Origin: Prorocentrum cordatum
Lineage: Eukaryota
NCBI GenBank assembly: GCA_963575745.1
Contig: CAUYUJ010000259.1
Span: 620,001-663,409, forward strand
DNA length: 43,409 bases
Reading direction: 5' to 3'
Position numbers and translations under genes: made by a program. This document shows, piece by piece, positions 9,988 through 42,095 of this stretch; position 1 is the stretch's first letter; each line of letters starts with the position of its first letter. The notes under the pieces are model-generated. The model saw only the letters and a program-made list of their open reading frames with translations, ran no database searches and was not told the DNA's origin.

Positions 9988-10034
<47 letters not shown>

Positions 10035-15605: not shown

Positions 15606-15865
15606 GGTCCCGGGACCCGGGACCGGCGCATGCAGGACCCTGGACCCGGACCGGCGCACCGGGTTTCGCGCCGGTCCCGCTTCCCGGGTCTCGCGCAGGT
15701 CCCGGGTCCCGGGTCCCGCGCCGGTCCCGGGTCCCGGGTCCTGGGTCCCGAGCCGGTCCCGGGTCCCGGGTCCCGCGCCGGTCCCGGGTCCCAGGTCCTG
15801 GGTTACGCGCCGGTCCCGAGCCCCGGGTCCCGGGTCCTGGGTCCCGCGCCGGTCCCGGGTCACGC
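15606..15865. repeat. 25-bp GC-rich satellite, block 1
   Basis: CCCGCGCCGGTCCCGGGTCCCGGGT units. The first ~55 bp are in the opposite orientation. Confidence 0.9.
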
Positions 15866-18767: not shown

Positions 18768-18986
18768 GGCTCGCGTGTTGGCAGCATCGGTTACACATAC
18801 CATGTGTCGTGGGGTGGTGTTTATGAAATGTATGAAAGCATCGTCGGTATCGTTCCTCTGCAATCGTTGCATCATTGCGTCAACGCGCATCGGACTCGTC
18901 TGCAATTGTCCATTGCATCGGCCCGCAGGCGTTTGGCTGTGTCCAAGCGAGTGCACGCTGCATCTGCGCACGCACTGCAGCTGCAG

Positions 18987-20438: not shown

Positions 20439-20512
20439 CTCCACTCCCTCTTCGCCTTCCCACCTCCCCTTCCCTCTCCCTCCAATCTCTATTCTATTTT
20501 TGCCTCGCGTGC

Positions 20513-21862
20513 TCAGTCCGAATCTGGCCCCGCTGGCGGCGGGGACTCAGTAACAGAACTCAGTTCAAGATGCGGAGGGCCATCGTCGCGCATGCCGCTG
20601 TTCGGCACATCGGCGTCCCTGCCCATGCTCATGCATCCGTCGTGGTCCGTGTCGTCGAGCAGGCCATGACCGTTCATGTCGCCCTTGCCCTCGCCGGAGC
20701 CCTTGCCACCGTCGTAGCCCCCGCCGCTGTCGAGGGCCGCCGCCTTGCCCTTACCACCGTCGTTAATGCTCTTGCCACCGTTGTAGCCCTCGCCATCGTC
20801 GTAGCCCTGGCCACCGTCGTAGACCTTGTCACCGTCGGTGCTGCCCTTGCTACCATCGTAGCCCTTGCCACCGTCGTAGTAGCCCATGGCCTCGTCGTCG
20901 ATGCCCGTGCCACCGTCGTAGCTTGTACAGCCGCGATCGATGCCATCAGCACCCTTGCCATCGTCGTAGCCCTTTTCGTAGCCCTTGTCGTAGCCCTTGT
21001 CGTAGCCATTGACGTAGCCCGTGTCGTAGACCGTGTCGTAGCCCTTGCTCGAGCTGCCGTACGGGTCGTAGCCTTTGTCGCTGCCCTTGCCGCCGTCGCA
21101 GCCGTTGTCGAAGCCCTTGCTCGAGCTGCCCTTGGCGCTGCCCGTGCCACCGTCGCCCTTGTCGTCGGCCTTGCCGCTGTCCGGCATCATGCCCTGCAGC
21201 CCGTCACGCTGCTCCTTCGCCAGCCTGATGTGGCCCCTGCCGCTGTCGCCGTCCTTGTCGCGGCCCTTGCCGCTGCCGTCCTTCTCGCGGCCCTTGCCAC
21301 TGTCGTAGCCCTTGCCCTTGCCACCGTCGTAGCCCTTGCCCTTGCCATCGTCGTAGCCCTTGCCACCGTCGTCGTAGCCCTTGCCATCGCTGTCGTAGCC
21401 CTTGTCGTAGCCCTTGTCGTAGCCTTTGTCGTAGCCCTTGTCGTAGCCTTCGTCGTGGCCCTTGTCGTAGCCTTTGTCGTAGCCCTTGCCATCGCCGTCG
21501 TAGCCCCTAATCAAGAGCTCGGCGATGTCGAGAAGCCTATCTGTCAGCCGCCGCTCCCGCTGGAGCTCCTGTATGGAGGGCGAAAATCCGCCGACCTCCC
21601 TCCTCCTGCGACACAGATTGACAAACAACGGGGGGTCAGTGAACCTGCCCCCTACCGCTGTGCACAGCTCGGGGTCAGCACACCTCCGAGCTCTCTGGAA
21701 ACAAGGGCCCAAGCTGAACCAATATCCAGCGGCCCCGAAACAGTAGCTCCCCCTGGGCCAGGCCTCTGAGCACCCTCTTACCCCAGGCCGAGGGGTGCCC
21801 ACAGACCTGGCCCAGCTTGACAACCTGCGTGGAGTAGACGGCCCCACACCTAACACAGACAA
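20513..21862 (-). CDS. G/Y/D/K-rich low-complexity protein (KGYD repeats); true start uncertain
   Basis: Open frame with GC3-biased GYDKG repeats. It shares HIRLAK..EQ.DGLQ..M.D.GKAD and KGSSSKGFD with the gene at 22714-23982. Confidence 0.6.
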   Translation of the reverse strand: MSVLGVGPSTPRRLSSWARSVGTPRPGVRGCSEAWPRGSYCFGAAGYWFSLGPCFQRARRCADPELCTAVGGRFTDPPLFVNLCRRRREVGGFSPSIQELQRERRLTDRLLDIAELLIRGYDGDGKGYDKGYDKGHDEGYDKGYDKGYDKGYDKGYDSDGKGYDDGGKGYDDGKGKGYDGGKGKGYDSGKGREKDGSGKGRDKDGDSGRGHIRLAKEQRDGLQGMMPDSGKADDKGDGGTGSAKGSSSKGFDNGCDGGKGSDKGYDPYGSSSKGYDTVYDTGYVNGYDKGYDKGYEKGYDDGKGADGIDRGCTSYDGGTGIDDEAMGYYDGGKGYDGSKGSTDGDKVYDGGQGYDDGEGYNGGKSINDGGKGKAAALDSGGGYDGGKGSGEGKGDMNGHGLLDDTDHDGCMSMGRDADVPNSGMRDDGPPHLELSSVTESPPPAGPDSD

Positions 21863-22713
21863 CTCCGCCAGAGAGATCTCCTCCCCCTCCTCCTTCTCCT
21901 CCTCCTCCTCCTAATCCTTCTCCTCCTCCTCTTCCTCCTCATCATCCTCGTCTTCCTCCTCGTCCTCCTCATCCCCCCTCATCCTTCTCCTGTGGCTCTC
22001 ACCCCAGCAGTCCTCTTGCAGGCGGCGCAGCGCCTCCGCGGAGGCGCTGCCATGGCGGCGCGGGCGGCGCGCGCGGGCCACCCGCGCGCGGCCACGCCCC
22101 CCTGGGAGGAGAAAGGGGTCCTCCAGGGGGCCTCGGTCCAGAAACAGCAGCGCGCGCAAATGGGGGGAGGGGGGGGGGGTGCGATTCAGGTGAGGGGGCG
22201 ATTCGGGTGAGGGGGCGTGGCTGCGTCGCGAATCGTTTCGCGCTGTGCACTCATGGGTGCATGCAGCAATGCATGCGTTGTTTCAGAGTCTACTTGGGGA
22301 TGTGAACTTGAAAATGAGATGCGTTAACATCGTCGTCTGCGTTCGCTCGAGACAGCCTCACAATTAACTCAGCATCACACGACCTCACAATGAACTCAGT
22401 ACCGCGAACCATGATGTTGGTTATGGTATGCCATGCAATGCTACGCTATGATGTGAATATCCCTCCCCGGCCTCATCCCCTCCGTTGCCACCGCCGTTTA
22501 GGCCCGAGCGTTGCTTGGGTCGCGACAGTGCGCGACCAGCTGCAGCGCTCCACGCGCAGCAGCTACCAGCGCTCCGCGCGCAGCAGCACCAGCTGCAGCA
22601 GCACCGCCAGTGCATCCAGCAGCTCCACGCGCAGCAGCACCAGCTGCAGCAGCGCCACCAGTGCAACCAGCAGCACCACCCGCAGCAGCACCACCAGTGC
22701 AACCAGCAGCACC

Positions 22714-23982
22714 ATGGCGGACGAGACCGCGGTGACGCTGCTCCTGGAGGCGGCGGAGGATATCAACCAGCGGCGGCGCGCGGCGGCCGCGGTCTTGCAG
22801 CCCACCAGCAAGGTGGCCCCTCGGCCGCCAACCACGCCGCCGACGGCGAAGGTCTTGGCGAAGTACGATCGCTCGCGCGTGGCCGACAACTTGCTCGATG
22901 ACATGGGCATGGCGCCCGCGCTGGATCCCGAGTTGAACTCGTTCCAGGGCCTGCAGGAGTTCATGGGCGACGGCGATGGCGACGACACGGGCTACGACTA
23001 CGCCAGCTACGACGGTGGCAAGGGCATCACCGACGGTGGCAAGGGCTACGGCGGTGGCAAAGGCAGCTCGAGCAAGGGCTTCGACAAGGGCCACGACGAT
23101 GGCAAGGGCAGCGGCGAAGGCTACGACATCGACAAGGGCCGCGACAAAGGCTACCACGGTGACAGGGGCGACGTGGGCTACGACGGTGGCAAGGGCGACA
23201 AGGGCTACGACCGCCGCTACGACCCGTGCAGCTCCAAGTGGTATGACCGCCACAGCTCGTGGTACGACCGCGACGACGATGACTACGACAACAGGTGGTG
23301 CGACCGCAAGCGCTGGGGCGACTACGACAAGGGCTCGAGCAAGGGCTACGACAACAGAGGCTACGACAGCAAGGGCTACGACAAGAGTGGCAACTACCAG
23401 CGTGGCTACGACAACCGTGGTTACAACAACCGTGGCTACGACAACCGCGGATACGACAGCAGTGGCTACGACAACCGTGGCTACGACAACTACGGCAACA
23501 GTGGCTACGACAGCCGTGACTACGACCGCAAGGGCGACAAGGGCTACGATCGCAAGGGCGACAAGGGCTACGATCGCAAGGGCTACGACGTCGGCAAGGG
23601 CTACGACGGTGACACGGGCTACGGCGGTGATCCAAGCTACGACCGTGGCGATACAGGCTACGACAGTGGCAAGGGCATCGACAGTGGCAAGGGCCACGAC
23701 GGCGGCAAGGGCGATAAAGGCTACGACGGCGGCAAGGGCTGGCGCGAGGAGAAGTCCCGCGGCGGGCGCCACATCAGGCTGGCGAAGGCCCTTGCCACCA
23801 AGGAGCAGCTGGACGGGCTGCAGGACCTGATGTCGGACCGCGGCAAGGCCGACTACGTCAGGTGGAGCAAGCGGACGCACTGGCGCATCTGGGTGGAGGA
23901 AAACAATACAGATCTAGTTCTATCGGGCCCCCTCATCCCTCCTCCTTCAACGGTTCTTACCAAGGACGAGGGGGAAGGATGA
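22714..23982 (+). CDS. G/Y/D/K-rich low-complexity protein, paralogous to 20513-21862
   Basis: ATG in accATGG context after a CAG-rich leader. It has a unique N-terminus (MADETAVTLLLEAAED), then GYD repeats, then a unique C-terminus. Confidence 0.7.
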   Translation: MADETAVTLLLEAAEDINQRRRAAAAVLQPTSKVAPRPPTTPPTAKVLAKYDRSRVADNLLDDMGMAPALDPELNSFQGLQEFMGDGDGDDTGYDYASYDGGKGITDGGKGYGGGKGSSSKGFDKGHDDGKGSGEGYDIDKGRDKGYHGDRGDVGYDGGKGDKGYDRRYDPCSSKWYDRHSSWYDRDDDDYDNRWCDRKRWGDYDKGSSKGYDNRGYDSKGYDKSGNYQRGYDNRGYNNRGYDNRGYDSSGYDNRGYDNYGNSGYDSRDYDRKGDKGYDRKGDKGYDRKGYDVGKGYDGDTGYGGDPSYDRGDTGYDSGKGIDSGKGHDGGKGDKGYDGGKGWREEKSRGGRHIRLAKALATKEQLDGLQDLMSDRGKADYVRWSKRTHWRIWVEENNTDLVLSGPLIPPPSTVLTKDEGEG

Positions 23983-24215
23983 GGGCCAAGAACTGGATAT
24001 GGAATGTGTTCCTCCTCCCGACATCTGGGCGGAGGCGGCAGTTCGCCGCTGATCCGCAGCGCCAGACGCCACTACCAAAGCGGCGCCGAAGCCGCCGCTG
24101 TCGCCATTGCGCCTCGAGCGCCCGTGCCGCCACCAGCGCGGCAGCAGGCGTCGAGTCCATTCTAGACCGCGCGCTGCATCTCCTCCGTCGGGCATGATCT
24201 ATTATGGTGGGGGTT

Positions 24216-24510
24216 GTCGTATGTAAGATTCTGACATACGACGCAGTTGTCGTATGTAAGATTCTAACATACGACAAAGTTGTCGTATGTAAGATTCTGA
24301 CATACGACACCGTTGTCGTATGTAAGATTCTAACATACGACGGATGTGTTAATATAATCCTTATGATATCTATAAGAGCGAGATGTCGTATGTACGATTC
24401 TTACATACGACAACGTTGTCGTATGTAAGATTCTAACATACGACAGATTTGTCGTATGTAAGATTCTGACATACGACAGATTTGTCGCATGTGAGATTCT
24501 GACATACGAC
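24216..24510. repeat. Array of eight 27-bp palindromes (33-bp period) arranged 4 + 43-bp spacer + 4
   Basis: GTCGTATGTAAGA-T-TCTDACATACGAC starts at 24216, 24249, 24282, 24315, 24385, 24418, 24451 and 24484. The AT-rich spacer is 24342-24384. Confidence 0.95.
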
Positions 24511-24659
24511 ACCAAGGGTTTGAGCTCATGTTTAGAGTAAACTTCGAGGGTCTCCATCTCGCTCGTGGTCGACGTTGCGCCTAGAATTGGCTTGTCTGCT
24601 TGGCTGCGCTGCCCGCGGCTGCGCTGGATCATGTTGATAAGTGATGCATGAGCGTGGCG

Positions 24660-25540
24660 TGAGCGAGAATAAGGGGGAGTGGGATGAGAGGAGGACGCGC
24701 GGGAGAAGGAGGACAAGGAGAAGGAGAGGGGGGAGGATTCTGAGGAGGAGGTGGGGGGTGAAGAGGAGGAGGAGGAGGGGAAGGCCCATCCTCCCCCTCA
24801 TCCTCATCCTCCCCCTCCTACCTTTATCCTCCTCATCCTCCTCCTCCTCCGCCGCCGCCTCCTCATCCTCCTCCTCCTTCTCCTCCGCCTCATCACCCTC
24901 CTCATCTTCCCCCGCCTCCTCCTCCTCCTCTGCCTCCTCTTCCTCATCCTCATTCTCCTCCTCATCATCCTCATTCTCCTCATTCTTACTCCGTCTCATT
25001 CTCACCCTCTTCATTCTCATCATGTCTCCTCCTCGTTCCCGCCGTCGCCGTCGTCGCCGTCGAAGCCGTCGCCTGCGTCGTCATCTGCGCGCGCGGTGCA
25101 GGAGAGGGCGGCGGCCGCCGTGACGACCACGATTGAACGACAACGAGGATGAGGAGGAGTAGGAGGAGGAGGAGCATGAGGAGGAGCAGGACAAGGAGCA
25201 CGCGGAGGAAGAGGGGGACGATGGGGAGGAGGAGGAGGAGGAGGGGGAAGAAGATGAGGAGGAGTAATTGCCATGGCGGCTGCGATAGCGACGGCGACGG
25301 CGAAGAGTTGGTGGCGACGAGCTGGCTGCGACGAGTTCGACGGCGGCGGGGGCGACGGCGGGGGCGTCTCCTCCTGCTCCTCCTCCTGCTCGCCCTCCCC
25401 ATTCTCCTCATCCTCGTCCTCCTTCTCATCCCCCCTATCCCTCCTCACCATTCTCATCCCCATCATCCTCCTTCTCCGTCTCCTTCACCTCCGCCGCCTA
25501 ACCCTCCTCATCCTATTCTTATTTCTCCTCGTCCTCATTC
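24660..25540. repeat. (GAG)/(CTC) purine-pyrimidine low-complexity tracts
   Basis: Alternating GAG-rich and CTC-rich blocks. Confidence 0.85.
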
Positions 25541-25676
25541 GTATTCGTATCCTCGGTCTCTCCGCAGGGTGCTTTATCGCGCGAAAAGCTGCAACGAGAA
25601 CCTGAAGGCTCGCATACATGCGCTTGCACGCACAACCCCAACGAGCCCCCATCTAAGTACGCCCCGACACCCACAC

Positions 25677-26440
25677 TCAGGCGGCGCATTCACCGATACC
25701 CAAGGCTTTGCGCCCCCGCGCACGATCGGCAGCACCTGCCTCCACAAGGCGATTATTCGCCCGATCAACCGCACCCTTACACATCTTGGCGTCGTCCAAG
25801 AGCATCGTGAACGAATCCGTGGCCTGCTCCGCCTTCTTCACGAGCTTCTCCATCTTCTTGTATGCAGCGTCTGCCTTTCGAGTGGGCATGGACGGGGGTT
25901 CAGACGTGGCGTTGGCACGCCGTTGCTAAGTGCGACCGTTCGCCCAACCGCTTGAGACCATGCGACCACAGTCGCAACGCCAAGCCATTACACAACCAAT
26001 TTCACACCCTGACATCATGATAGTACATACCTGCGTGTCAACGCAACCGAACGCGCATGCATACGACTGCATTGGGCGTTGCCTCAACGCCCCCCCCTCC
26101 CCCCCCCCCCCCATAGTGTCACAAGTGCGCCCTTCGACGCGAACTACTCGCAGCCGATTGCAATGCGTTTCAACACAACCGAACATGCATACAACTGCAT
26201 CGGGTGATGCCCAAACGTTTATGCTCTAATCAGCAACTATATTTCGACGTGAATGGATTGCAACCACTTGCAACATGTCATGCATGAGATACTGGCTGCC
26301 TTGCGGTCCGCCGTTTTGGACATCTTCTGGCAATGCTGCTTGTGCCTGATCAGGGTATCCAACCGTTCATTGAAGTGCTCCGTGTCCTCCTTGCGGTGCT
26401 TGGCACGCAGCGCCTTCAAGTCGGCTGACATGGCAGGCAT
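25677..26440 (-). CDS. Small two-exon coiled-coil-like protein
   Basis: Exons 26440-26300 and 25874-25677 join in frame across a GC-AG intron with AAG|GCAG at both junctions: MPAMSADLKALRAK..KTADRK|ADAAYKKMEK..GECAA*. Confidence 0.6.
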
Positions 26441-26603
26441 AGTCGCGTACACACGCGCGCGCGCCGCAGCTTACAAGCTGCGTTCTCTCAGCCCTCAACC
26501 AACTCGGCTGCGTGAAAACGCATGTAGTCTGCGACGCGGTCGCATGGCATGAGTGCCAACCATGTGACCACACATCACTGCCCTACTCATACCCCCCCCC
26601 CCC

Positions 26604-26606
<3 letters not shown>

Positions 26607-26641
<35 letters not shown>
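26607..26641. repeat. (CA)n microsatellite preceded by poly-C
   Basis: Directly visible. Confidence 0.95.
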
Positions 26642-26644
<3 letters not shown>

Positions 26645-26880
26645 CATCGACGCCGTGATCGGGCACTCCCGTTGCATGTCCACCCCCAGCCGCCTCCTCA
26701 TCTCGACCCCTCTCCTGTTCACACCTCTCGCGCCCCCCCCCCCCCAGCTTACTACATGTCGCCAACGATGGCGGGGCTGAACGTTTGGCAAACCGTCAGC
26801 AGCATTTGTGGTTCATTCGCCCACCTTTGCGAACCAGTTCACGCGTGGCTTACGCGTCCCCATTTGTGGTTCACGTGTCC

Positions 26881-27318
26881 ATGGGAAAATCAGCGAAGAC
26901 GATCGCGATGGAAGCGCAGGTGCGCTTTGAGCTGCAGGATGAAAAGCAGGAACGCCAGCGGTCAGTGAAGACTGCCAAGGCGGCATTGAAGCATGCCAAA
27001 GCAGCGAAGACGCAGGCTGAGAAGAAGGCAGGCGGTTGTTAACTAACAACAACACAAGGGCCCCTCGAGGCCAGGGGGGAGGGGATGGGCTCTCGAGCCC
27101 ACCCCCTTAGTCAATGGCCCCATCGGTGTCGCCAGTCCCACCCGCCTCCGTGCGATCGCCCCCCTCCCTCCCCCCCCCGATAGGCAGAGAAGAGGTTCAA
27201 TGCGTTTTTGAAGAGCAAGGACGCGTGGATGAACGCGCTGCTCGACAAGGATGATGCGAGCGCGGCCCACGTTCGGGCCGAGACTGAGCTGGCGCGCGCC
27301 GAGCGCGATGCCCGCTAG
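26881..27318 (+). CDS. Small two-exon coiled-coil-like protein (~93 aa)
   Basis: Exons 26881-27027 and 27184-27318 with a phase-0 GC-AG intron (AAG|GCAG...TAG|GCAG): MGKSAKT..KTQAEKK|AEKRFNAF..AERDAR*. Confidence 0.65.
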
Positions 27319-28358
27319 GGGCGTGGGGGCGACGGACGACGGGTGGAGGGGTCAGAGAAAAAACCTGCATGCATCAATGCAAGATGAGTCTGGGATGATA
27401 ATGTCGGCATGATAGCGCAGGTGCCTCGTCCTCCTCCTCATCTTCCCCCTCCTCCTCCTCCTCCCTCCTCCTCCGCCTCCTCCTCCCCCCTCCCTCCCCA
27501 TCCTCATCCTCATCCCCCTCATCCTCGTCCTCCCCATCACATCATTCCCTCTTCGTCCCTCCTCGTCGTTGTCCTCCTGTTGCTGCTGGTGCTGATGCTC
27601 TTGCTCATCCTACTACGCTACTAAGCCGTGCCCCCCCCCCCATCGCTCCCTCACAACTGCTTCGCACTCTGAATGGCATTGGTGCTATGCGTTTCCGCCT
27701 TTTCGCGTCATAGGATCATCCGACGCCTCACGATATCTGTAGGATGACGCAGCACCAAAACCCCAAGAGGAACCACATATAGAGCCCCAAGGCCGCAACG
27801 AGGAGGAGGAGAAGGATGAGGAGGGGAAGATGAGGAGGATGAGGCGGAAGAGGAGGAGGATAAGGAGGATCGCGACTTTGGGATGCTCCCGACTGGTGAG
27901 GTTAAATCCAGAACGCCAGTTCTGTGAGTGATGTCTTGGACCGCCCCCTCGGCATCAGCGCGCGCGCACTTAACGAAAATGATGATGAGACATATGATGA
28001 TAACAACTGCAGGTGGTCTGCGCTCTTCGTTCGAGTCGGATGGGCTGGCGGGGATACGCGACGCGGCAACACTTACATCGCCATATACGCGTCGGTTCTA
28101 TGTATGCCAAGATGCATGCAACCCGTTGCAGGTGGTAGACTCGCACTGCCATCCGAAACCAATCTTCGATGCGTGGGGCATTGCAAGTTGGCATCAGTTG
28201 GTGTCGGGTTCTCGTTTCGAATATAGATCACACAGGCCCGCGTCGCATAGCCATTTGGGCTCGATCGCGATCGATCGCGATCTATCGCGAGGCGCGATCT
28301 TTCGCGAGGCGCGACCTATCGCGAGGCGCGAGGCGCGAAGGTTCGGAACTGTCGTCAT

Positions 28359-29765
28359 ATGACGACGGTTCCGAACCTCCGCGCGGAACTGCAGCACATG
28401 TCAGAGTGGGTATCGACACAAATCGCATGCGGCCTGTGCCCATCAGCCGTGGCCCAGCACCAGTACGACAGCCTCCTCATGAAGATCAACAACCTGTCAC
28501 ATATCAGTACTGACGAGGCGACAGCCTTGGTGAAAACAATCAGGGAGCACTCGCTGAACACTTGGACTCAAGAGAACATCGCACGCTTGTGCCAGAGCGT
28601 CGGGACCAAGACAGGCATGTTGTCAATGCCAGGCGGATCCAAGCAATGGCAAGAGATTAGCATTGCATCGAGGGTCTTCACGGCGAGCGAGATCAAATCG
28701 CTGAAGAGCGGCGACCTGAGTGAGAAGGTGTGCATACGCCTGGTCGCCGCTCGGTGCAAGCTGATCGGCGCCCACACGCTCTCCGAGAGCTCCAAGGGCA
28801 AGATGGCCGCGCTCGTGGCGTGGGGCAGCGGCAAGGGGCATGGGGGCGATTGGCTCAGGCTCCTCGGAGAGGTGAAGGGTGCCATCTCCAAGGCCATCAC
28901 GTGCAAGGGTTGGTCCACGCTTGGGTACGCCACGGCGTGGAACTTCGACCGCATCGAGGACATGTCGGCGGAGCCGTGGTGGAAATCAGTTTACAAGGAC
29001 GATGGGCCCGCCTTGGAGGAGATCCAGACGGACGCGCCAGACTACGTGAGGAAGTCGAGCAGGCGCTACGCGGCGAAGACCTCGCCTGCAGCTGCAGCAC
29101 CCCCAATGACAGCCCCAGACCCTGCGGCTGGCGGGCAGTGGTAAGTCATGCAGGCCCTGTTCGGTGCACCGCTGTGCGCGGCGCTCTTCGCCAACTCGGC
29201 GGCCGCGGCTCTCAGGCCGCCCGAGCCGCCTGCGCAGCCGCGCGTGGAGCTGGAGCCCCCGAAGCCAAAGCTCCCGCCGCGCGAGGAGCCGCAGCAGGAG
29301 CCGAAGCTTCCGCCGCGCGAGGAGCCGCGCGATGAGCCGCGCGATGATGAGCCCGAGCCAGACCTGACCGACGAGGAGGAGAAGCTCAGGGCGCTCCTCG
29401 CCAAGAAGGCCAAGACCGCCAAGGCGAGGAAGCGCCCCTCCGCGGCTGGCGAAGGCGTCGGTGACGCCGAGGGCGGGGCAGGCGTCGAAGACGCCGAAGG
29501 GGCCGTGCCAATGAAGAAGGCGCGGCCCCCTGCCATGCGGCGACCCGCAGCTGCCGTGCCAAAGCCCGCCGTGCTGCCCAAGCCGCCGACGTGCGAGTGC
29601 AACGCGCCGTACAGGTGCGGCTACGTGATCTACAAGCCTTCACAGAAGGTGTTCAGGGCCGTTGTGGGGAGGGCAGATCGCCGCGCCCGCTTCGACCGCA
29701 ATGCGACGATGAATCGCATTGAGGCTTGGAGCGCGGCGCTGGCGTGGATCGACGCCAAGTGTTAG
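28359..29765 (+). CDS. Cargo protein with a helical N-terminal domain, P/E/K/A-rich linker and small basic C-terminal domain; one in-frame stop
   Basis: ORFs 28359-29144 and 29148-29765 are in the same frame and separated only by TAA at 29142-29144 (possibly a CAA>TAA change). GC3-rich codon usage throughout. Confidence 0.65.
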
Positions 29766-30206
29766 GTGCTCGACGCGGGGAGGGGGAGGACCAGGGGGTT
29801 GTTGAGGACGATCAGGGCTGGGAGCTCGCATCGCAGCTGCAGCGCGGCGGCGGGCGGCGCCACATCGACGAACTCTCTCTTGCTTGTATGACGTTGCACC
29901 ATGATGTCTAAAACACAAGTATGTTGCGATCTTTTCATCGCAAGTCGCATGCATCAATATGCAACGCTCCTTTCTGTTGCGAGCTACCGTCGCACTTCGT
30001 ATGCATCAATATGCACCTGCATGTCCTTCTGATGCGACGTCGTATCATGCCATATGCATCGACATGAAACGTGCACTTCTGTTGTGATCTATCGCCTCGC
30101 TGCGTTCAGATGCATCATGCAGCGTGCCCCTGCCATAACGCGGCGCATGCATCCTATGATGCGCATTGGCATCGTTATCGAGTCTGTAGCCATTTGGGCT
30201 GAAACC

Positions 30207-32289
30207 ATGGCCGCGTCCGCCGCCAGGAAACGCAAGGCGGATGAGGCGCTGGTGGAGCTCCACAAGGGCTCATACCTGTCACAGCGTGCTCTGTCGGGTG
30301 TCCTAAAATATATGCGAGACCATGGGTTGCCCGACAATATTTCACGGAGCTCACAATACAGGGCAAACGGAAACATCATTGCCAAAGAGTCGAACGCAGA
30401 TGGGAACGTCTTGCGTTGCATAGACACGCCTTTAGTCAGTGGTAGAACTTTCGAGAACTGGGTGTGCTGTCCTGGGCCACTTTTGTATTCCTGCTGCAAG
30501 GCTAGCGCTCCAGTCAGGGAGATGTTTCGCCGCTCACTTCAGGAGCACCCATGCAGCCTGGCGTCGCCGCGGCACATCATTTTATATTTCGATGGTATTT
30601 CACCGCGAGACCCCCTGGCGAAGGGGAGAGATTATCGGGGGGGTGATGCTGTTTACTGGTCGTTCGCTGAGTTCGACGAGTCCTTGGGTAACGAAGATGC
30701 GTGGTTCACGCTTAGCACTGCGCGGTGCGCAAAAATAAAAAGCATCCCAGGTGGCATCGAGCAGTGCATCAAGATGATCCTCAACGAAGTTTTTTTAAAA
30801 TTCTGCTGGTGGTTTCAATTTTGAGACGAGCGGTGTTACATTAGACGCGTCAGAGAACGGCGACGCAACGTCGCACGCGACGATCGTCGCGAAGCTGTCG
30901 TGCGTCATAGGGGACGAAGAGGCATTGCGGGAACTACACATGAACAAAGGGCACGCCGGTTCCAAACCCTGCGCGTTATGTCGCAACGTCTTGAATAGAA
31001 AGTTTGATTATTTGACATATGATGTATCTGGTTTCTTTGTGACAGACGCGTGCTTGGACGCGTCAAAGATACGCAGAAACGATGACGCGACAATCATCGC
31101 GGTCCTGGAACGACTTCGGCCCGATTGGGATAAATATCAGCGGGGGGAGTTTTCAGAGGGGCAGTACACGACCATCACACAGCACAAAGGATGGAACTTC
31201 CACCCCGAACACATAGCGCTGGACCCAGGTTTGCGATATCTCCCTGCGTCATTCATTTGCTTTGACTGGATGCATATTTATTTTGTGTCTGGTATATTCG
31301 ACAGAGAAGTAAAAGCACTTTTAGGGCATGCGCAGTTCAAGTGTTTGTGTGATGCAAGGGAGTTGCATGAGTATTTCATGAAGTGGACGTGGCCGAGTAA
31401 ACACCACTCAGCCGCAACTGTATGGGAGACTGGTGAGCTCCAAGCAGGTGCCTCAGAAGAGATCTCTGCGTTGCCTGTTTTGTGCAGGTATATTCGGCAA
31501 GTAATTGCCAAGCATCCTTCATCGGATCAAGTGCCCCCCCAGATCGCAAGTATGCTGGCATTGCAAGATGCCGTTGACATAATCATCGCGGCGGCGCGGC
31601 GGCTTCCAGTCACGACCGCGCAGATAGAGTCAGCGATAGTGAAACATCTTCGGTGCCATCAGGACGCATATGGTGAAAGCTATTGGGTGTATAAGCACCA
31701 TATGGCAACACCATTTGCCAGAAATGTTTGAAAAAAACATGGGTCGCTCAGTTGCTTTGTCCAGGAACGCAAGCACAAAAACGTAAAACGTTTCGCCAAT
31801 GACCACATGTGCAAGAAGGGGCCAGAGAAGGCTCTCATGGTCCAACTCACTGCGCAGCACGCGCACGATTTAAAGACCATGCGTGTTTCACCTGGCTTAG
31901 TCGACCCAACGAAAGCAACACAGAAGCTGCTGAATGCGTTGAAACGCATGTGCCCTGGGACGCAGACAGCCGTCTCCAGCATCGAAGCCATGACAGATTT
32001 CGGCCGCATCAAGCGCGGTGATATCGTACTTCTGGGGTCGGGCGGGATGCATGCAGCAATGCAAGTGTGGTTTCACGTGAAATGCGACGATGGCGAGTCG
32101 CAGGTGCTTGTCCAGCAGCTTGCAACTAAGCATGTGAACGCCGCTGAAGGTTTTTCCAGACACATCTTTTTAGATGATACAGACCCTGTTCTGATGCCTC
32201 TGACCTCGCTGAAAGCTGTGATTTACAGGAAAATAGAGAACGACGTCACGTGCATTTGGCCAGTAGAATACACATCGCGATGTTGCTAA
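30207..32289 (+). pseudogene. CACTA/CMC (EnSpm-Mirage/Plavaka-like) DDE transposase, frameshifted
   Basis: Ordered motifs ILYFDG, IGDEEA, KPCALC, FDWMH, KHHM..HL and SCFVQERKHK match the D..D..CxxC..DxxH..H..E layout of CMC-type transposases. Indels occur at homopolymers near ~30795 and ~31710-31737. Confidence 0.75.
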
Positions 32290-32530
32290 CATGATGCGCT
32301 GCGGACCGTCGCGTTTGCCCCAGGACGATAAAACAATCTGAAGGCCCCTGAGCAGATCCAAATCGACGAAGCGCCCAATCATGATGCCCCAATTTCCAAC
32401 TACATGAGATGCAAAAACATAACATAAACATTAAACAACAGCTTCAAACTGGCCAAACCTAACTAGTTATAACTCCGTTAATAAAAATTAGAAGTTCCGC
32501 TAACTGTTACTAACTACGCAGGGCCTTCAG

Positions 32531-32758
32531 GCCGGGTCCCGAGTCCCGCGCCGGTCCCGGGTTCCGGGTCCCGGGTCCCGCGCCGGTCCCGGGTTTCGGG
32601 TTTCGCGCCGGTCCCGTCTTCCCGGTGTCGCGTTGGTCCCGGGTCGCGGATCTCGCGTTGGTTCCGCGGGTCCTGGGTCCCGGGTCCCGCGCCGGTCCCG
32701 GGTCCCGGGTCCCGCGCCGGTCCCGGGTCCCGGGTCCCGCGCCGGTCCCGGGTCTCGG
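32531..32758. repeat. 25-bp GC-rich satellite, block 2 (between elements A and B)
   Basis: Same unit and orientation as block 1. Confidence 0.9.
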
Positions 32759-32802
32759 CCTTGAGACTCCAAGGTCGATCTATAGTGCGGGGTCGAACTA
32801 TA
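32759..32802 (+). repeat. Left TIR of element B
   Basis: CCTTGAGACTCCAAGGTCGATCTATAGTGCGGGGTCGAACTATA is the exact reverse complement of 42052-42095. Confidence 0.97.
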
Positions 32803-33034
32803 GATCGACCTGGCACTTTCCTTGGGTCGCACTATAGTCCAACCCATGATTTTTGGCCAGGTCGTACTTTTCTTCGCTCGCGCATTGTTAAGGATCCCCT
32901 GAGTGAGGGGGCATGCGTCCCCTGAGCGAGGGGTATCGGCTGCATCACATTGCGCGCATGTTACAACATCCCGCAGCTGCGAAGGCTCGAGGGCACATAG
33001 CGCTACTCTTGCTTGCGCGCACTGGGGGTGGGCA

Positions 33035-34440
33035 ATGGTCAAGGGCAAGACGGAGGTGAAGATACGGGCTTCTTCTGTGACAGAGGAACAGTTGAAGCCG
33101 CTCGTGAAACAGCACATTGATCTCATCGAAAAATGCCAACTGCAAGGGGGCATAGATGACTTCATGAAGAACAACATGCCGTTTCTCTTGCCGCTTGCGC
33201 AGCTCACCACACGCGTCAAATGGAAGAACCTCCAGGACGTCGTGTTGAAGCAGAAGCCGAACATGCACCAGGAAGAGTGTAGGCGTTTCTGCCAGGAGGT
33301 GGCCAACGCTTTCAGCCATGTTTGCAACAAGTTCTACATCGCCAAGACGGGGGGGAAGCTGGAGGCGCACACAAAAATGCTTGGGGTGGCAATGGGGCTG
33401 CAGCCTGGCAGGGCAAGCCCAAGCACAGGAGAGAGCAAAAAACGCGCCGACAGCAGCTCCGACATAGAGATGAACCCTCCAAAATCTTCCACGGCCGCCG
33501 CGTCGTCCAGCGCAGATGGGGGCAGCAGGCGCAATGTCATCAAGAACGCCTTCGGCATCAGCCCGCCTCCGAAACCGGCAGGGAAGAAACAGAAGGTTGC
33601 CACGTGGAGCCCGATGGTGGTGTTCTCGTCGCAGGAGGACGTCGAGCTCGCTGACCCGCCCGCCGCGGCCCCGAAGGAGGATCGGAGGGGGCGGGCAGGG
33701 TGGGGGGGGGAGGGGAGCAGTTTTGATTTTTCACGGCGTAACCGAACCCCTTCGGGAGGGGAGCTCGGGAGGGGCAAGTGAGAGACCCGCCCCAGGATCC
33801 CCTGGCCACGTATTTCGATTTCAACTCCGAGCCGATGTGCATGGTGATGAAGTTCGCAGACAGGGAGGAGCGGGGAACACTGACGAAAGGAGGCGATGGT
33901 TTCTTGGATGCCGTGTTTCCCGACGGCAGGACGGAGAAGACGGAGCAGCCCAACGCCCTCCTGGCAGCAAGAGCGGCAGCCGCGCAGGCGAAGGCGAAAG
34001 CGTGCAAAAAAGGGAAGCCAGCAGGACATGTAGTGGCAAAGAAGCCTGCAATGAGAAAGCCCAGTGCAGCCGCCGCGAACACGGAGACGGACCAGGACGA
34101 TGAGGGGGAGGAGGAAGAGCAGCTGGAACCCGATGAGCCCGTGGATGCTGCAGATGAGCCCTCGGTCGGCGCTGGGCCCCCCGCTGGCCACGCCGACCGC
34201 GGGTACAGCGTGATGTACTACAAGAGGGACCACTCTATCGGGTTGAAGCGGACGCACGGTGAGAAGAACCAGTTTGTGAGTTTCGGCGGGAAAAAGTACA
34301 AGGACACCTTGGACGAGGCCACGCTCAGGGAGATCGGCGCAGAGCTGAAGAAGGCCTTGGTCGACGGCACCGTGGCTGACACCAAGGAAGCTGCTAAGGC
34401 GGAGGCTGAGCGCTTAGTGGCACAGCGCTTGGGCGACTAA
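33035..34440 (+). CDS. Two-exon cargo protein with a K/P/A-rich linker and a small basic C-terminal domain
   Basis: Exons 33035-33679 and 33796-34440. A GA-AG intron with AG|GATC at both junctions joins ORFs 32903 and 33778 in frame. Confidence 0.7.
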
Positions 34441-35408
34441 TCGCATCCATCCTCATCATCGCATCCATCATCATCATCATCCTTACCGTCTTCATCGCCA
34501 TTGCCATCGCCATACCCGTTGGCAGAGCGCCCTCTCCAGTGCTAGACGACACCCCCTCATCGCAGGGGCGCCCCTCCGTGAGGGGACCGCGCGATGGATT
34601 GGCGAGTGATGGAACCCCTTAAGAGGGGAACCCCTTAAGAGGGGCTTCAGCACACTCGCGATAAGACAGGGCAACGGCCCCCTCCGAGAGGGGACCCCTC
34701 GGGGAGGGGATCAAAGGTGCGGCAGTCTGCTTACTCATTATGTGTATGGCATTGCGTTTCCTCCTCGTTCCATCCCTCTCCCATTTGCTTTCATGTTCTT
34801 CATCCGCAACCGTTCGACAGAGCTGACGCCCAGCGCGCTTGGGGGCCAGCCCCCCGCCCCGAGCTCGCGGCCATGCGGGCGCTCATCGCGCGCCTCTCGG
34901 CGCTCCAGGCCGCGCGGAAGCAGAATGCAAGGGGGGAGTTGGGGCAGGATGAGGAGAAAAGTAAGAGTGACGGCCACTTGTTTGGCCATCTGGGCGATAA
35001 AAAATCAATCCAGCAGCCGAGTTTTAGACCCACCTTTTTTAGCAAAAAAAGGGGGGTCTAAAATTGGACGAATTCCTATGAAATTCCATTACATTCACCC
35101 CCCCGAAGGGCCTCCCACGAGGCCCCCAGATTTTAGCCTTTTGAGTCTGACTAAAAACTTTCGGCCGCAACCGTTCTGGACCCCAGGCTTCCGGCATGAT
35201 GATGTCGGGCGGCTGCGGCGGCGGGCTGCCTCCAGAAGGCGGTGGCGGCGGCAAGCGGCCTCACGAGGAGCTGGGGGTACACGTGGTTAAGGCGCCCCTT
35301 CCTGAGGGGATCCGTTTACAGAGACCCCTGCCAGAGGGGATTTATCGATAGAACCTCCCCTTCCTGAGGGGATTCATTCACAGAGACCCGTGACCCTTCC
35401 TGAAGGGA

Positions 35409-35774
35409 TTGATTTACAGAGACACCCTGCAGGACGGGCACGCGCCTGTCTTTGAGGTCGACGACGACGACAGCGAGGCGGAGGAGGAATTCATGCTGGA
35501 CTTCCAGGACCACAGGAAGCGGTACACCCGCTCGTCCCACCGCTTGTGGCTTCGCAAGATGAACTGCAAGAAGTGTTGGCAGTGCGGCAAACACACCTTC
35601 TTCTCGGTGTGCGTTGGCAAGACGTGCCAGGAACACCACGCGACCCAGTGGTTCCACGAGCACGGCGACCGCGACCGCAACGGGAGGAGGTGGAGGGGCG
35701 GCAAGAGCGAGGTCGCCAGAGCCAGGCAACGCAAGGGTGCAAGTGGTGGGGAGGGGGGAACCCTCAAACATTGA
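35409..35774 (+). CDS. Possible small Cys/His-rich (zinc-binding-like) protein
   Basis: CKKCWQC..C...CQEHH cluster and GC3-rich codons. The start is uncertain. Confidence 0.4.
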   Translation: MIYRDTLQDGHAPVFEVDDDDSEAEEEFMLDFQDHRKRYTRSSHRLWLRKMNCKKCWQCGKHTFFSVCVGKTCQEHHATQWFHEHGDRDRNGRRWRGGKSEVARARQRKGASGGEGGTLKH

Positions 35775-36219
35775 GGAATGAAGTTATGTCGGTTTGATGT
35801 TTTGATGTTCTCAATGTTTATCCTGGTCAGTTTTCTGCGCCTGCCAGGCACTGGCAGCGGAGGTGCGATACCAGGGAGGCGGTCTTGGTCGGCCTGCTGC
35901 AGGACCGCACCCCCCCCCTCTGCCCCGCGCTGCCAAGAAGGGAGGGCCCCTGTTTGAGGGGATAAACGAGGGGGGACCGAATAAACGCAAGAAGAGGCCC
36001 CTCTCATGGGGGTGAGCTTACTTCGTCGTTCCCCGACAGGAGCAGCAGAACGAAACAGCAGCGCAGCCGCCGCCCCCGCAGGGGGGGCCAACGCCACCGA
36101 TCGGCCCGCCACCCGCAGCACTGTTAGCAGCAGCAGCGGCTGGACACCCCGCAGCAGCAGCAGCAGCAGCAGCACCGCCCGCAGCAGCAGCAGCAGCAGC
36201 GGCAGCACCTGCCGAAGCA

Positions 36220-36975
36220 ATGCAGGTTGACGGATCCGACGACGGAGCCCGAGAGGGGGAGGAAGAAGAGGAGGATGAGGGCGAGGAGGAAGAGGGCATG
36301 GAGGAGGAAGCGGAGTCAGAGGAGCCTGATGAGCTGATGAGGCTAGAGGAAGAGCACGCAAGGCAGCATCGGAGGCTCTTGCGGGCATTGAATCGCACGG
36401 AGGCGGCGCAGAGGGGCGTCGAAAGGCACAAGGAGCGCCTTCGGCAGGAGCAGGAGCGCAGGGCAGAGCAGGAGATCATCCGCCTGAGGCGGGCGCAACA
36501 ACAGCAGAGGGACGCCGCGCTGAGGCGGGAGGCAGAGGCCCGCCTGGAGCTGCAGAGGGCAGCAGAGGCCGCCGAAGCGCAGGCGAGGACGAGGCTGCTG
36601 GCTGCCGAAGCGGCCGCACGGAGGGCGGAAGAGGCGGCCAAGGCTGCCAAGGATGCGGAGGACGCAGCGCGGGCCAAGGAGGAAGCGGAGCAGAAACAGA
36701 AACGAGAGGCAGAGGAGCGGCAGGCGGCAGAGACGGCAGCGCCAGAAGCGGCAACACCAGAGCAGCCAGAGACGGGCGCAGCAACGGCGGACGCAGCCAG
36801 GGCGGACGCGGAGAACGCAGACAACAAAAAGAAGGACCCCAAAGCAAAAAAAAGGCCCCGCGCGGACCAGGCGGGGGGCAGACCCTCGAAAGGAGGGAGG
36901 GGCGACAAAGACAAGGACAAGGACACTGAGAAGGACAAGGGCAAGCGCCCGAAGGCGACCTCTAAGAGGGGCTAG
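36220..36975 (+). CDS. A/E/R-rich coiled-coil protein with an acidic N-terminus and basic C-terminus
   Basis: 251-aa ORF preceded by a CAG-rich leader, with heptad-like composition. Confidence 0.65.
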   Translation: MQVDGSDDGAREGEEEEEDEGEEEEGMEEEAESEEPDELMRLEEEHARQHRRLLRALNRTEAAQRGVERHKERLRQEQERRAEQEIIRLRRAQQQQRDAALRREAEARLELQRAAEAAEAQARTRLLAAEAAARRAEEAAKAAKDAEDAARAKEEAEQKQKREAEERQAAETAAPEAATPEQPETGAATADAARADAENADNKKKDPKAKKRPRADQAGGRPSKGGRGDKDKDKDTEKDKGKRPKATSKRG

Positions 36976-37299
36976 GACCGCTTCTCCATCCTCCTGGTCA
37001 CTCTTCCTCCTGCTCCTGCTTGTCGCCCGCCCTCCTCCTTGTCCATATCCCTCTTGCTTCTGCTCTTCCTCCTTGTCAATCTTCCTCCTGCACCCCCATC
37101 CGCCCCAGGACGGCGCGCCCTGAGCCGCGGGGCGACCGCGTCGGCGACGGCGCCGACATCCATATACATTTGCGCGGCCTCTCGCGCCAGAATAGAGGCG
37201 GTACGGGTTAAGGGGACTCTGATTGACTGTGGCCCCTTCATTGCAGGGGCGCGCGCGGCTGCCCCTGGCAGAGGGGACGGGCGATCACGAAACCGATTA

Positions 37300-37490
37300 T
37301 CTTAAGGGGAAATTCTCTTTGGAGAATTCTCTTAAGAGAATTCTCTCTTAAGAGAATTCTCTTAAGAGAATTCTCTTAAGAGAATTGCGTGGATGTCTCA
37401 GGCAAAACCAACAATTCTCTTAAGAGAATTCTCTTAAGAGAATTCTCTTAAGAGAATTCTCTTAAGAGAATTCTCTTAAGAGAATCTCTC
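37300..37490. repeat. Self-complementary 14-bp tandem array (AATTCTCTTAAGAG)n split by a 26-bp spacer
   Basis: Overlapping palindromes GAGAATTCTC and CTCTTAAGAG. The spacer is 37387-37412 (GCGTGGATGTCTCAGGCAAAACCAAC). Confidence 0.95.
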
Positions 37491-38283
37491 TCGTAAAGGT
37501 CGCTTGCAGTGCACCCCCCCTCGCTGCATGGGGGCCAGACGAGCCCCGCTGAGGGGCGAAACGCCCCTGGCTGAGGGTGGGGGGGGGAGGGGGCGGGGCT
37601 GGGCCGTATCTGACGGGCCCCCTAGGGGGGTTGGGGGGCGCGGTGTTCCTGATTGAGGGGGGCCCCTGAAACATCTTTGACGGGCCCCTTGCGGAGGGGC
37701 ACCGCCGTCCTTCACTGAGGGTGAGCCCCTTTAATGAGGGGGGGCAGTGTGAGCAGGGGCAGCAGGGGGGAGCAGTAGCATTGCATCATGGGTGAGTCGT
37801 TCGGGCCCCTGTGCTTGCCTGCCGCGCAAAGCAATCCAGAGAGGGGGGTGCCCCTTTTTGAGGGGGCGCGCACCCCTTACTGAGGGGGAGGCCCTGGCAC
37901 ATCCCCTCCCCCCCCCCGCCTCACCGCTGATGAGGTAGCACCCCTTCTCTTCGAGGGGGAGGAGGCGACCGCGTGGGTTGCGAGCCCCTTCGAGGGGAGA
38001 GAAACGAACCCCTGGCTGAGGGGAAGGCTCGACGATACTGAAATGTACCACCACACACGCCACACCCACAGCACCACACCACACCCACACGCACCACTGA
38101 AGTGCGCGGGGAAGGCCCCCGACGATCTACTTGCCATTCGCAGGCGTTTCGGCTGCCGCAGGGCATTTCGATTTTGCTGCTGTATCCCAAATTTCAGGGG
38201 TCAGTCCCGCGGCAGCCATGCCCGCCCCAGGAGTAGTCTCTCCTCTGCTCCTGCTGGGCACTCTCCTCACACCGTTGTGCAGC

Positions 38284-39557
38284 ATGGCGCCGAAGAAGAA
38301 GATCGAGGGCCAGGGCGCACCAGCGGCGAAGAAGTCGAAGGCGGCCCCGAAGGGGCACGGGCTCGACAAGCAGGAGGCCGACAAGATGAGGGCGTGGCTC
38401 AAGTACCAGTCGGAGAAGAAGGACGGCAGCGGGAAACCTACGAGCACAGCAGAATCCGCCAGAGCAGCCCAGGCGCTTTGGAACGGGATGAAGGACCCAG
38501 CCGATCGGAAGCGTTTCTTGCAGACCTTCGCGAGTGACAAGGATAAGACACTTGACTGGTTGGCCACCTTCGAAGAGAGATGCACGAATGAAGAGGTGCA
38601 CGCGCGCTCTGCCAAGAAAGGGTACCGGAATGTATCGCAGGCACTGGCCCTCAAGAACCTCACCATCAAAGACTTTGCGAACATCCAGGAAGCCACTGCC
38701 TTCGTGCAGGAATGGTGGGAGGAGAACAGCGAAGAGCATGGCACCAAAGAAGAATTCCCCATCAAGGAAGATGTCAAGGACAGGCCTCTGTGGAAGGAGT
38801 GGTACTTCGTCGAGCGCAACATGGACGATGACCAGCTGGTGACGAAGGACTCGCGCACCTTCAAGGGGACGTCCAACCTGAAGAACCTGAAGCAACTCGA
38901 AGCTGCAGGCATCAGGATGGCCGAGCTCCCGTCGTCCAGCGCTTCGGGGTCGGGTGGGGGCGGCGAGGTGAAGATCGAGAATCCGCACTGGCCAGAGATC
39001 GTGAGTAAGAAGGACGAGATCGCGCGCCGTCCTCGGCAGCCGCCCCCTGCCCTTCCATCTCTGGTGCTCTGCCAGACCCCTCCCAGAGGGGGGCCCTCTC
39101 CCCCGCCACGCCCCCGCCGCCCCTCCTGGAGGGGATGGCGATAGAAACTGTTCGTATCCGTTCTGTCGTGCGTTGTTTGCGTTGAAAAGCATGTCGGCGC
39201 ATTGCTTGTTTATGATCCCTACCAAGGCAAATGCTGGTCAAGTATCAGAAGGAGCTGAAGTTCCTAAAGCACACGAAGAATCAGTTGCTCGCGAAGGCTG
39301 GGGATCAGGATCAGAAGGACCGTCAGAGCTTCCAGAACTGGGCCGATGAGTGCAAGAAGTGCGTGGACAATGCGGACCAGCACGAGACGGCGATGGAGGT
39401 TCTGATTGCGAAAATTGAGGGCGCTGATTCTGTCGGCAAGGACACGGACATGTACGATAAGCTGAAGAATGAGGTCCAGGCCGCCTACAACACACACGAG
39501 CACATGTACGAGGGCATTCAGCTCTCGGTCAAGCGCTTCAAGAAGTTCCTCAATTGA
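38284..39557 (+). CDS. Two-exon hypothetical cargo protein with an N-terminal NLS-like MAPKKK and helical C-terminus
   Basis: Exon 1 runs from 38284 to ~39023 and exon 2 from 39227 to 39557 (acceptor ccaag|g). The donor position is approximate. Confidence 0.7.
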
Positions 39558-39987
39558 GCTGCGGCCCTACATCTACATCTACATATCAGTATTTACATGC
39601 ATATATGCAGTAGGGTTTGAGATGCTCTGCCTCGCCCGACGACGCGCATGCAGCGCTGCCTTTCCGACGCCCGTGGGAAAACGAGAACTTGCCGCTTCCT
39701 CTGCCAGGGGTGCCCCTTCGTGAGGGGCCGCGTGTTTCTGGGTTTGCCAGTAAAGAAGCCCCCCTCATCGCAGGGGCGCGGGGGGAGGGGGGGGCGGGGG
39801 GGAGGGGGGCTTGGTATCATCAGGAGGGGAGTAGCAGGAGGGGAGGGGCATGAAAGGGATTGAAGGAGGGCGCGGAGGAGGGGCGCGGGAAAGGGCAAGG
39901 GCCCCTTGCCTCATCCGCGCATGTCCGTAGCCACTGCAGTGGCTCAAGGCCGCCGCGCTCGCGCCTGTCTCCCGCGGGCCCCGCGGG

Positions 39988-41866: not shown

Positions 41867-42051
41867 AAAGAACGCTTCTGTGTGTATCGTTGTCATTCAT
41901 TGCTGTCGGCTCAAATATATGTTGGACCCCTCCCAGTGGGGTGAGCGCGAGCATGGGCGCTGAAGCCCCGTTTGCCCCAAAACGGCGGGTCGAACTATTT
42001 TCGGCGCGCCCGAACTATAGATCGACCCGCAGAAAAGTATAACCCCCGCAT

Positions 42052-42095
42052 TATAGTTCGACCCCGCACTATAGATCGACCTTGGAGTCTCAAGG
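42052..42095 (-). repeat. Right TIR of element B
   Basis: Exact reverse complement of 32759-32802. Confidence 0.97.

Follow-up and report, generated by a model that had tools for sequence, protein, structure and literature searches.

We report here on two arrays of palindromes in a stretch of 43,409 nucleotides of DNA from Prorocentrum cordatum (assembly GCA_963575745.1, contig CAUYUJ010000259.1, positions 620,001 to 663,409 of the forward strand). We call this whole stretch the window; each array lies inside a large DNA transposon, element A or element B, and is a candidate regulatory site for the genes to its right. The window has a GC content of ~60% and is crowded with low-complexity repeats. 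A satellite built on GGTCCCGGGTCCCGCGCC occupies 15606-15865, 32531-32758 and 42096-43010, and both elements are inserted in one GC-rich GGTCCCGGG-type satellite. The elements and their arrays are as follows.

15864..32532, plus strand: element A, a 16669-bp DNA transposon bounded by terminal inverted repeats (TIRs; GCCTGAAGGCCCT), within GGTCCCGGG-type satellite.
24216..24510, no strand: array A, 4+4 near-palindromic 27-bp units with a 33-bp period, forming an interrupted palindrome with 127-nt arms.
24342..24384, no strand: spacer of array A (hairpin loop), 43 bp.
32759..42095, plus strand: element B, a 9337-bp transposon with 44-bp TIRs (CCTTGAGACTCCAAGGTCGATCTATAGTG...).
37300..37486, no strand: array B, the self-complementary 14-mer GAGAATTCTCTTAA in about 5+5 units.
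37387..37412, no strand: spacer of array B (hairpin loop), 24-26 bp, within a unit and between repeated AATT.

The eight units of array A start at 24216, 24249, 24282 and 24315 on the left of the spacer and at 24385, 24418, 24451 and 24484 on its right. All eight have the same orientation, and each follows the pattern GTCGTATGTAAGATTCT[G/A]ACATACGAC with 0-2 substitutions. Each unit nearly equals its reverse complement, and for this reason the 127-nt arms are 84% complementary. In contigs from runs X1, X7 and X2, the spacer carries a T>G change at 24355 and a 2-bp deletion at 24369. Array B contains seven exact copies of GAGAATTCTCTTAA together with degenerate and partial units, and has perfect 44-nt arms around a spacer of 24 nt, or of 26 nt when counted from the repeated flanking AATT. 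The GC content of 160-nt windows in both arrays is 33-42%, compared with ~60% in the surroundings. Folded as single-stranded DNA, each array forms a single long hairpin, the loop of which is the spacer (-96.2 kcal/mol, z -17.9 for array A; -73.5 kcal/mol, z -14.9 for array B), and none of the shuffled sequences used for comparison folded equally well for either array. A preliminary description of this DNA had reported AT-rich, self-complementary arrays that are split once, and had given 4+4 palindromes around a 43-bp spacer, a start at 24216 and an element midpoint of 24198 for A. Direct inspection of the units bears this out, and array B likewise is a split palindrome array that contains the element midpoint 37427, with a spacer of 24-26 bp and its end at 37486. 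The same description had seen a common signal in the hexamer GGATGT, which is shared by the two spacers. This hexamer, however, is found 15 times in the window where 22.6 occurrences are expected, and for spacers as long as these a 6-mer in common is expected in roughly one case in five (38 x 21 / 4096); the sharing is at chance level and the signal was rejected. We also rejected the idea that the elements are inverted dimers around their arrays, as none of the 80 longest self-matches listed joins one arm to the other. Immediately right of array A, at 24687-24990, lies a low-complexity inverted repeat, GGA-rich and then TCC-rich, with 70-76% complementarity.

AT-rich palindromic repeats in a GC-rich background could also mark a replication origin or DNA-unwinding element, comparable to the origins and enhancers that large DNA viruses build from palindromic repeats, and the architecture does resemble that of the baculovirus homologous regions (hr) and of oriP of Epstein-Barr virus (EBV). 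However, TIRs and a DDE-type transposase are present in the elements, Pfam recognised no replication gene in the window frames and nothing points to an episomal phase, which makes this explanation very improbable. Viral contigs contained neither an array unit nor a transposase relative, and prokaryote genome contigs contained neither the array A unit nor the TIR of element B.

The arrays might, alternatively, be without function, as minisatellites expanded by slippage where DNA is prone to form hairpins, or as small foldback elements nested in the transposons. Tandem arrays are common in large DNA transposons, an example being the captured satellite of Chenopodium CACTA elements described in the available excerpt of PMC8978399; a foldback element with repeat-built arms is present in the same window (11479-14965), and array A has the 5-bp sequence GGGTT on both sides. 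On the other hand, there is no flanking duplication at array B, and neither the array A unit nor the array B unit occurs elsewhere in the window. A nested foldback element or MITE (miniature inverted-repeat transposable element) should have its own termini, a duplication and independent copies. Here the units are unique in the window, array B lacks a duplication and array A has only GGGTT. Furthermore, the depth of spacer A was 183.8, 20.5 and 13.9 in runs X1, X7 and X2, respectively, and that of contigs elsewhere on element A was ~169-330, 29-52 and 11-20. The two are similar; in these runs, therefore, array A is not a repeat that is dispersed on its own. The possibility, raised at the outset, that the arrays are independent dispersed minisatellites or MITEs is made unlikely by the uniqueness of the units in the window and by these depths in three runs. 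The contigs break at the arrays, and the joints, with sides of 20-23 letters in low-complexity or tandem-repeat stretches, gave no deletion derivatives.

Metagenome contigs scanned with the transposase alignment gave 40 loci with 23-46% identity in the best segment, and we read these loci as genomic DNA because none ends in poly(A). For four of them (L016, L025, L027 and L033), the sequence upstream of the transposase gene exceeds 6 kb. A GC-corrected scan in 160-nt windows covered the six elements with enough DNA on this side of the gene (>2.5 kb for B, >6 kb for the others). In five of the six, namely A, B, L016, L025 and L033, the array was the top hairpin window. The arrays of the three relatives, whose transposases are 23-37% identical to that of A, are the following.

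L016, 2046-2178: two 55-bp A/T hairpin units, mutually inverted around a spacer (z -8.0).
L025, 4717-4945: six TTTTTATCG-NN-CGATAAAAA copies (a unit also written TTTTTATCGTTCGATAAAAA), the last two flipped (z -11.5).
L033, 1310-1568: 3+3+2 copies of AATTGTTAATTAACAATT with 23-24-bp spacers (z -9.6).

The units of these five arrays are mutually unrelated and the arrays are split by spacers or by a change of orientation. As an array is present in L016, L025 and L033 too, it is a family trait and not an accident of A and B. That the same architecture is found in lineages this distant, with the sequence replaced, also speaks against an absence of function, which we consider improbable, and the data support the view that the arrays belong to the elements as integral and non-random components. 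L016 is the sole complete relative bounded by TIRs (8329 bp, with 53-bp TIRs at 1057 and 9385). Its TIRs start with TACTTGGAG, a motif shared with the right end of L033 and with a third element in the window. In L025, five telomere-like CCCTAAA heptamers (4655-4690) stand directly beside the palindromic array.

Each array is located in a stretch free of long open frames, with same-strand frames on either side, at the left edge of the right-hand gene block, which ends with the transposase gene. The main genes of these blocks are listed here.

28359..29144, plus strand: accessory gene of A, first open frame, homologous to the gene preceding the transposase gene in eight relatives.
30207..32283, plus strand: transposase gene of A (~700 aa family), in this copy broken near 30797 by a frameshift and at 31729-31731 by an in-frame stop.
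38290..39144, plus strand: first open frame to the right of array B, starting MAPKKK...
39988..41866, plus strand: transposase gene of B (~570 aa family), with a gap at 40864-41026 that is read as an intron.

The open frame to the left of array A ends at 24197, which leaves 19 bp to the array, and the frames flanking array B end at 36975 and start at 38290. The accessory gene precedes the transposase gene in A, L006, L034, L019, L025, L021, L027, L013 and L016, with partial matches in L033 and L030, and the two genes form a conserved core. For the MAPKKK... frame of element B no family was found, nor does it match the A-type accessory profile. From the array centre downstream to the start of the transposase gene it is 5.8 kb in A and 2.6 kb in B, distances at which we rejected the array as the core promoter of the transposase gene itself. 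At the transposase locus of A, contigs from other runs have 1-base and 2-base deletions at 31711 and 31731, and other copies of this gene may read through.

Smaller palindrome clusters are found close to genes, among them one in element A that reaches over the start of the accessory gene.

28262..28378, no strand: second palindrome cluster of A, small units followed by a palindrome over the accessory ATG.

About four units of the CGCGAT-N4-ATCGCG type with a 17-bp period (28262-28335) stand right before this ATG, which is itself spanned by a near-perfect palindrome of 38-40 bp; in element B, a 19-bp palindrome ends at the transposase ATG. In L006, four copies of GCGCGAGCCTGCTCGCGC precede the accessory gene, the last ending 53 bp before the ATG, four copies of GGCGAGCCTGCTCGCC end ~60 bp before the transposase ATG, and more palindrome copies lie just past the accessory stop codon. 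Four copies of CGCGAGCATGCTCGCG are located in L008 at 120-260 bp past the transposase frame, just inside the right subterminal repeats, and in L011 the upstream cluster is split by a microsatellite. The palindrome GCGAGC-N0-4-GCTCGC occurs 44 times in 11 of the 40 loci, compared with a mean of 0.06 and a maximum of 1 in shuffled sequences. Counted by position, 17 copies lie ≤450 bp upstream and 8 lie ≤300 bp downstream of the transposase frame, with 5 around the accessory gene of L006, 9 inside transposase frames and 5 elsewhere, so that 30 of the 44 adjoin a transposase or accessory frame, at ≤450 bp on its upstream side or ≤300 bp on its downstream side. In this transposon family, non-coding DNA next to genes habitually carries tandem palindromes. 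Two copies of GCGAGC-N-GCTCGC stand inside the transposase frame of both L008 (971 and 1486) and L009 (1237 and 1752), at identical offsets of 349 and 864 bp from the frame start.

Two further explanations bear on these positions. Firstly, the arrays might be internal cis-elements of transposition that have no need to be central, with sites for the transposase or the accessory protein that serve in transpososome assembly or its regulation, much like the subterminal repeats bound by TnpA in En/Spm or the internal enhancer of Mu. In agreement with this, GCGAGC-N-GCTCGC flanks the transposase gene on both sides in short loci, close to the expected ends, the core has two proteins as in En/Spm, and the units, being inverted dimers, would suit a dimeric binder. 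However, the array units of A, B and L016 do not share more 7-mers or 8-mers with the terminal 300 bp of their elements than control segments do (8, 0 and 11 shared 7-mers for A, B and L016, with control means of 17.1, 15.7 and 12.8), and this absence of an excess argues against end-binding sites having simply been reused. As a link to the subterminal repeats, TGTAAG (core of the array A unit) was also tried and rejected, since it occurs 16 times with 7.6 expected, but only once in the ends of A. We think a role in transposition of this kind unlikely. Secondly, an array transcribed within a read-through or 3' region could act as an RNA hairpin, which might end the upstream transcript or feed small RNAs that tune or silence the element. 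Both arrays are situated just downstream of same-strand frames and have stems of 44-127 bp, and relatives have palindromes right past stop codons. However, the arrays matched no known RNA family in Rfam and many of the clusters precede start codons, at odds with a role at 3' ends, so that a function as RNA appears doubtful. A scan for promoters and terminators, made with bacterial models on DNA of a eukaryotic host, only found the palindromes again.

The location of the arrays within the elements was the basis of a further proposal. The centre of array A lies 165 bp from the element midpoint (relative position 0.510) and that of array B 34 bp (0.496), offsets that amount to 1.0% and 0.4% of the element length. 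With a uniform distribution as the null hypothesis, centring gives p = 0.020 for A and p = 0.0073 for B (Fisher combined p = 0.0014), in a test that is post hoc and covers two elements only. The preliminary description had proposed a conserved central cis-site. Its cis-feature part holds, in that an AT-rich split array recurs in L016, L025 and L033. A conserved central location, which for a Mu-type site should be kept as element length varies, is not supported: in L016, the sole complete relative and a distant one, the array is found at 12.7% of 8329 bp (relative position 0.127) and the midpoint (5221) falls inside an open frame (4532-6046) homologous to the accessory gene. The distance from the array centre to the right end is 7273 bp in L016, 8310 bp in L033 and 8169 bp in A, against ~4.7 kb in B (for L033, whose left end is beyond its contig, only this distance is usable). 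The array therefore appears to be anchored to the right-hand module and not to the element midpoint, and the idea of centring is weakened at the family level, on one complete distant relative.

If the centring of A and B were functional, the array could be an aid to synapsis. A flexible or cruciform-forming AT-rich palindrome at the tip of a supercoiled loop would be equidistant from both ends and could help to pair them, in the manner of the central strong gyrase site of phage Mu, which helps the ends of the phage to synapse. The small offsets from the midpoint and their combined p value are in favour of this, folding indicates that both arrays can extrude long looped hairpins, and the elements are large (9.3 and 16.7 kb), which makes it harder for ends to find each other. 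The complete 8.3-kb element L016, with its off-centre array and coding midpoint, speaks against it, as do the short family loci with palindrome clusters beside the transposase gene, the array of L008 between the transposase gene and the right terminus, and the post hoc nature of a test on two elements. We know of no precedent for a central synapsis site in a eukaryotic transposon, and the only arrays that the literature search brought up are captured satellites close to the 3' end of CACTA elements. A general synapsis aid of this kind has in our view little likelihood, and we are similarly sceptical of a narrower version in which the array is position-dependent and midway in the large elements of the family, with L016 as an exception or using another device. 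If true, it would be the first position-dependent synapsis aid of a eukaryote and a counterpart of the phage Mu site.

Taken together, the tandem palindromic units, the turnover of their sequence within a maintained architecture and their non-coding positions near gene starts and ends lead us to suggest that the arrays hold clustered binding sites of a dimeric protein, and that they control or bound the right-hand gene block of the element; we put the probability of this at roughly 0.5. The binding protein would be encoded by the element or by the host, and the array would serve as an enhancer, promoter or insulator for the right-hand genes. One large AT-rich array is placed upstream of the whole accessory-plus-transposase block, and small clusters are found at tens to some hundreds of base pairs ahead of start codons and shortly past stop codons. 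Units that differ between lineages within a constant architecture would be expected of binding sites that co-evolve with a dimeric, sequence-specific protein, and the spacer would allow a long palindrome of this kind to survive replication. The centring of A and B would then be due to chance, the left arms with their unrelated cargo genes being about as long as the right arms.

Several observations weigh against a role as clustered sites for a dimeric protein. The centring of two independent elements is nearly exact (combined p 0.0014), and it is called a coincidence on the strength of L016 alone, whose transposase is ~25% identical. The next clear start codon is 3.8 kb from array A and 0.8 kb from array B, which is beyond the distances seen for the small clusters. 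In the scan, L027 had no upstream array, and the relatives with DNA context are all of the A type. Pfam recognised no family at E ≤ 0.01 in any frame of the window, so that no DNA-binding domain was found. A model of the N-terminal domain of the accessory protein matched no fold in the PDB at E ≤ 0.001, although the model is confident (predicted local distance difference test score, pLDDT, 84.8) and all-helical. Finally, the gene models are open frames only.

An internal array of hairpin-forming palindromes, the architecture of which is kept across a family of protist transposons while its sequence turns over, is to our knowledge new; the literature gave no account of such an array, nor of these elements. 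The array offers a handle on the control of genes and movement in marine elements that are abundant but unstudied, and the strongest hairpin upstream of the accessory-plus-transposase block could be used as a simple annotation marker.

With regard to the elements themselves, the termini of A align with those of L016, L033 and L037 and with those of a third element in the window.

43011..43409, plus strand: third element, of the A-type family, with the left end TACTTGGAT..., truncated by the end of the window.

The terminal sequence is GCCTGAAGG in A, CCTTGAGAC in B and TACTTGGA in the relatives and the third element. CACTA/EnSpm elements are expected to have a target-site duplication of 2-5 bp (3 bp in EnSpm). 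Within the variable satellite, the flanks are CAC on the left and CGG on the right of A, and CGG and GGG for B; L016 has CC on both sides. According to the available excerpt of PMC12730594, members of the CMCT clade of the CMC group have termini that begin with 5'-CACTA or are at least CA..TG. The termini of A, B, the relatives and the third element are neither, and the CACTA label given earlier to A and B is not borne out by termini that are not CACTA. TAAGT/ACTTA-rich subterminal regions are present, as is the conserved accessory gene upstream of the transposase gene in A and eight relatives, which does fit the features of subterminal repeats and a second, non-catalytic protein that are expected of CACTA/EnSpm elements, and "CACTA-like" is at most a guess at the superfamily level. 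We regard A and B, which look unrelated to each other, as belonging to a group of DDE cut-and-paste transposons that is found in marine protists and has been poorly described. Near-identical copies of both were found in contigs of three differently labelled organisms and in marine metagenomes, and the nearest cluster in the protein atlas is labelled Haptophyta.

The transposase family of A has 1530 representatives at E ≤ 0.001, typically of ~650-700 aa, and the six clusters that were looked up came from contigs of ≤5.5 kb with ENA, JGI/IMG, NCBI and Logan as sources. The transposase family of B is distinct, with marginal similarity to the A transposase, and a longer homologue search gave none. 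In 12 full-length transposase relatives Pfam detected no family at E ≤ 0.1, and nothing was detected in the accessory genes of the relatives; Transposase_21 (PF02992) and Plavaka (PF18759) were not recognised by Pfam in the transposases of A and B. The sole link to these two domains is a language-model similarity of 0.91-0.92 to clusters that have them, and the nearest named relatives are Plavaka and EnSpm-type transposases. In an alignment of 22 members (A1), C58-x2-C61 and H301-x3-H305 are invariant or near-invariant, and D39, D96 and D156 are conserved, as is a later E, the catalytic residues having been assigned by eye. Similar motifs, with conserved acidic residues, C-x2-C and H-x3-H, are described for the EnSpm/Plavaka/Transib group in the excerpt available to us (PMC12730594).

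The left arm of element A holds further open frames, for which no counterpart was found in the relatives. Among them are two inverted copies of a gene for a Lys-Gly-Tyr-Asp (KGYD) repeat protein.

20513-21910, minus strand, and 22318-23982, plus strand: KGYD repeat-protein frames, divergent inverted duplicates and cargo of A.

Perfect palindromes of 24 bp (22027-22050) and 27 bp (22066-22092) lie between these two frames. In element B, contigs of runs X1 and X8 have a 20-base insertion at 35304 relative to the copy in the window. The three different transposons A, B and the element at 43011 share one GGTCCCGGG-type satellite, and the metagenome loci L001, L002 and L022 likewise end in GC-rich satellites or microsatellites; this association may reflect a target preference, or merely an assembly break point. 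To the left of element A, the foldback-type element at 11479-14965 has inverted arms of ~1.3-1.5 kb and matching inverted outer ends. The arms (11617-13083 and 13702-14839) are formed by an 89-bp tandem repeat and enclose ~600 bp of unique sequence. Long (GAT)n-type arrays in the same orientation are present at 1961-2618 and 9913-10557, ~8 kb apart, and the stretch between them has no recognisable gene.

Among known systems, the En/Spm (CACTA) elements have protein-binding inverted motifs in their subterminal regions, where TnpA binds the subterminal repeats. The arrays described here resemble these repeats in that clustered short motifs, often inverted dimers, are located in non-coding DNA of a two-protein transposon, and in En/Spm the motifs likewise adjoin or overlap the element promoter and are lineage-specific. 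They differ in that the largest array is internal, thousands of base pairs from the ends, shares no more words with them than control segments do and forms one long interrupted palindrome, and in that CACTA termini are lacking and Transposase_21 was not detected. With the central strong gyrase site of phage Mu, which also has an internal enhancer, the arrays of A and B have in common that there is a single site almost exactly midway between the ends; however, the Mu site is a gyrase-binding sequence and not an array of palindromes, the host here is a eukaryote and the array of L016 is off-centre. In the baculovirus hr regions and in EBV oriP, with its family of repeats and dyad symmetry, tandem imperfect palindromes bind a dimeric factor and act as enhancers, and the hr palindromes have an EcoRI core, as does array B. 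Those are viral replicons, and the likeness is one of working that does not imply homology. Foldback transposons and MITEs with long inverted repeats, such as the element at 11479-14965, similarly have tandem-repeat arms around a central loop, but the arrays have no termini of their own and no established flanking duplication, and in depth they do not exceed the host element. Lastly, plant CACTA elements have captured 171-bp satellite monomers near their 3' end, which also occur as free satellites (PMC8978399, available excerpt). This is again a tandem array inside a large CACTA-like DNA transposon; in comparison with what that excerpt describes, however, the arrays of A and B consist of short palindromes, are confined to the element and have an architecture that recurs in distant relatives.

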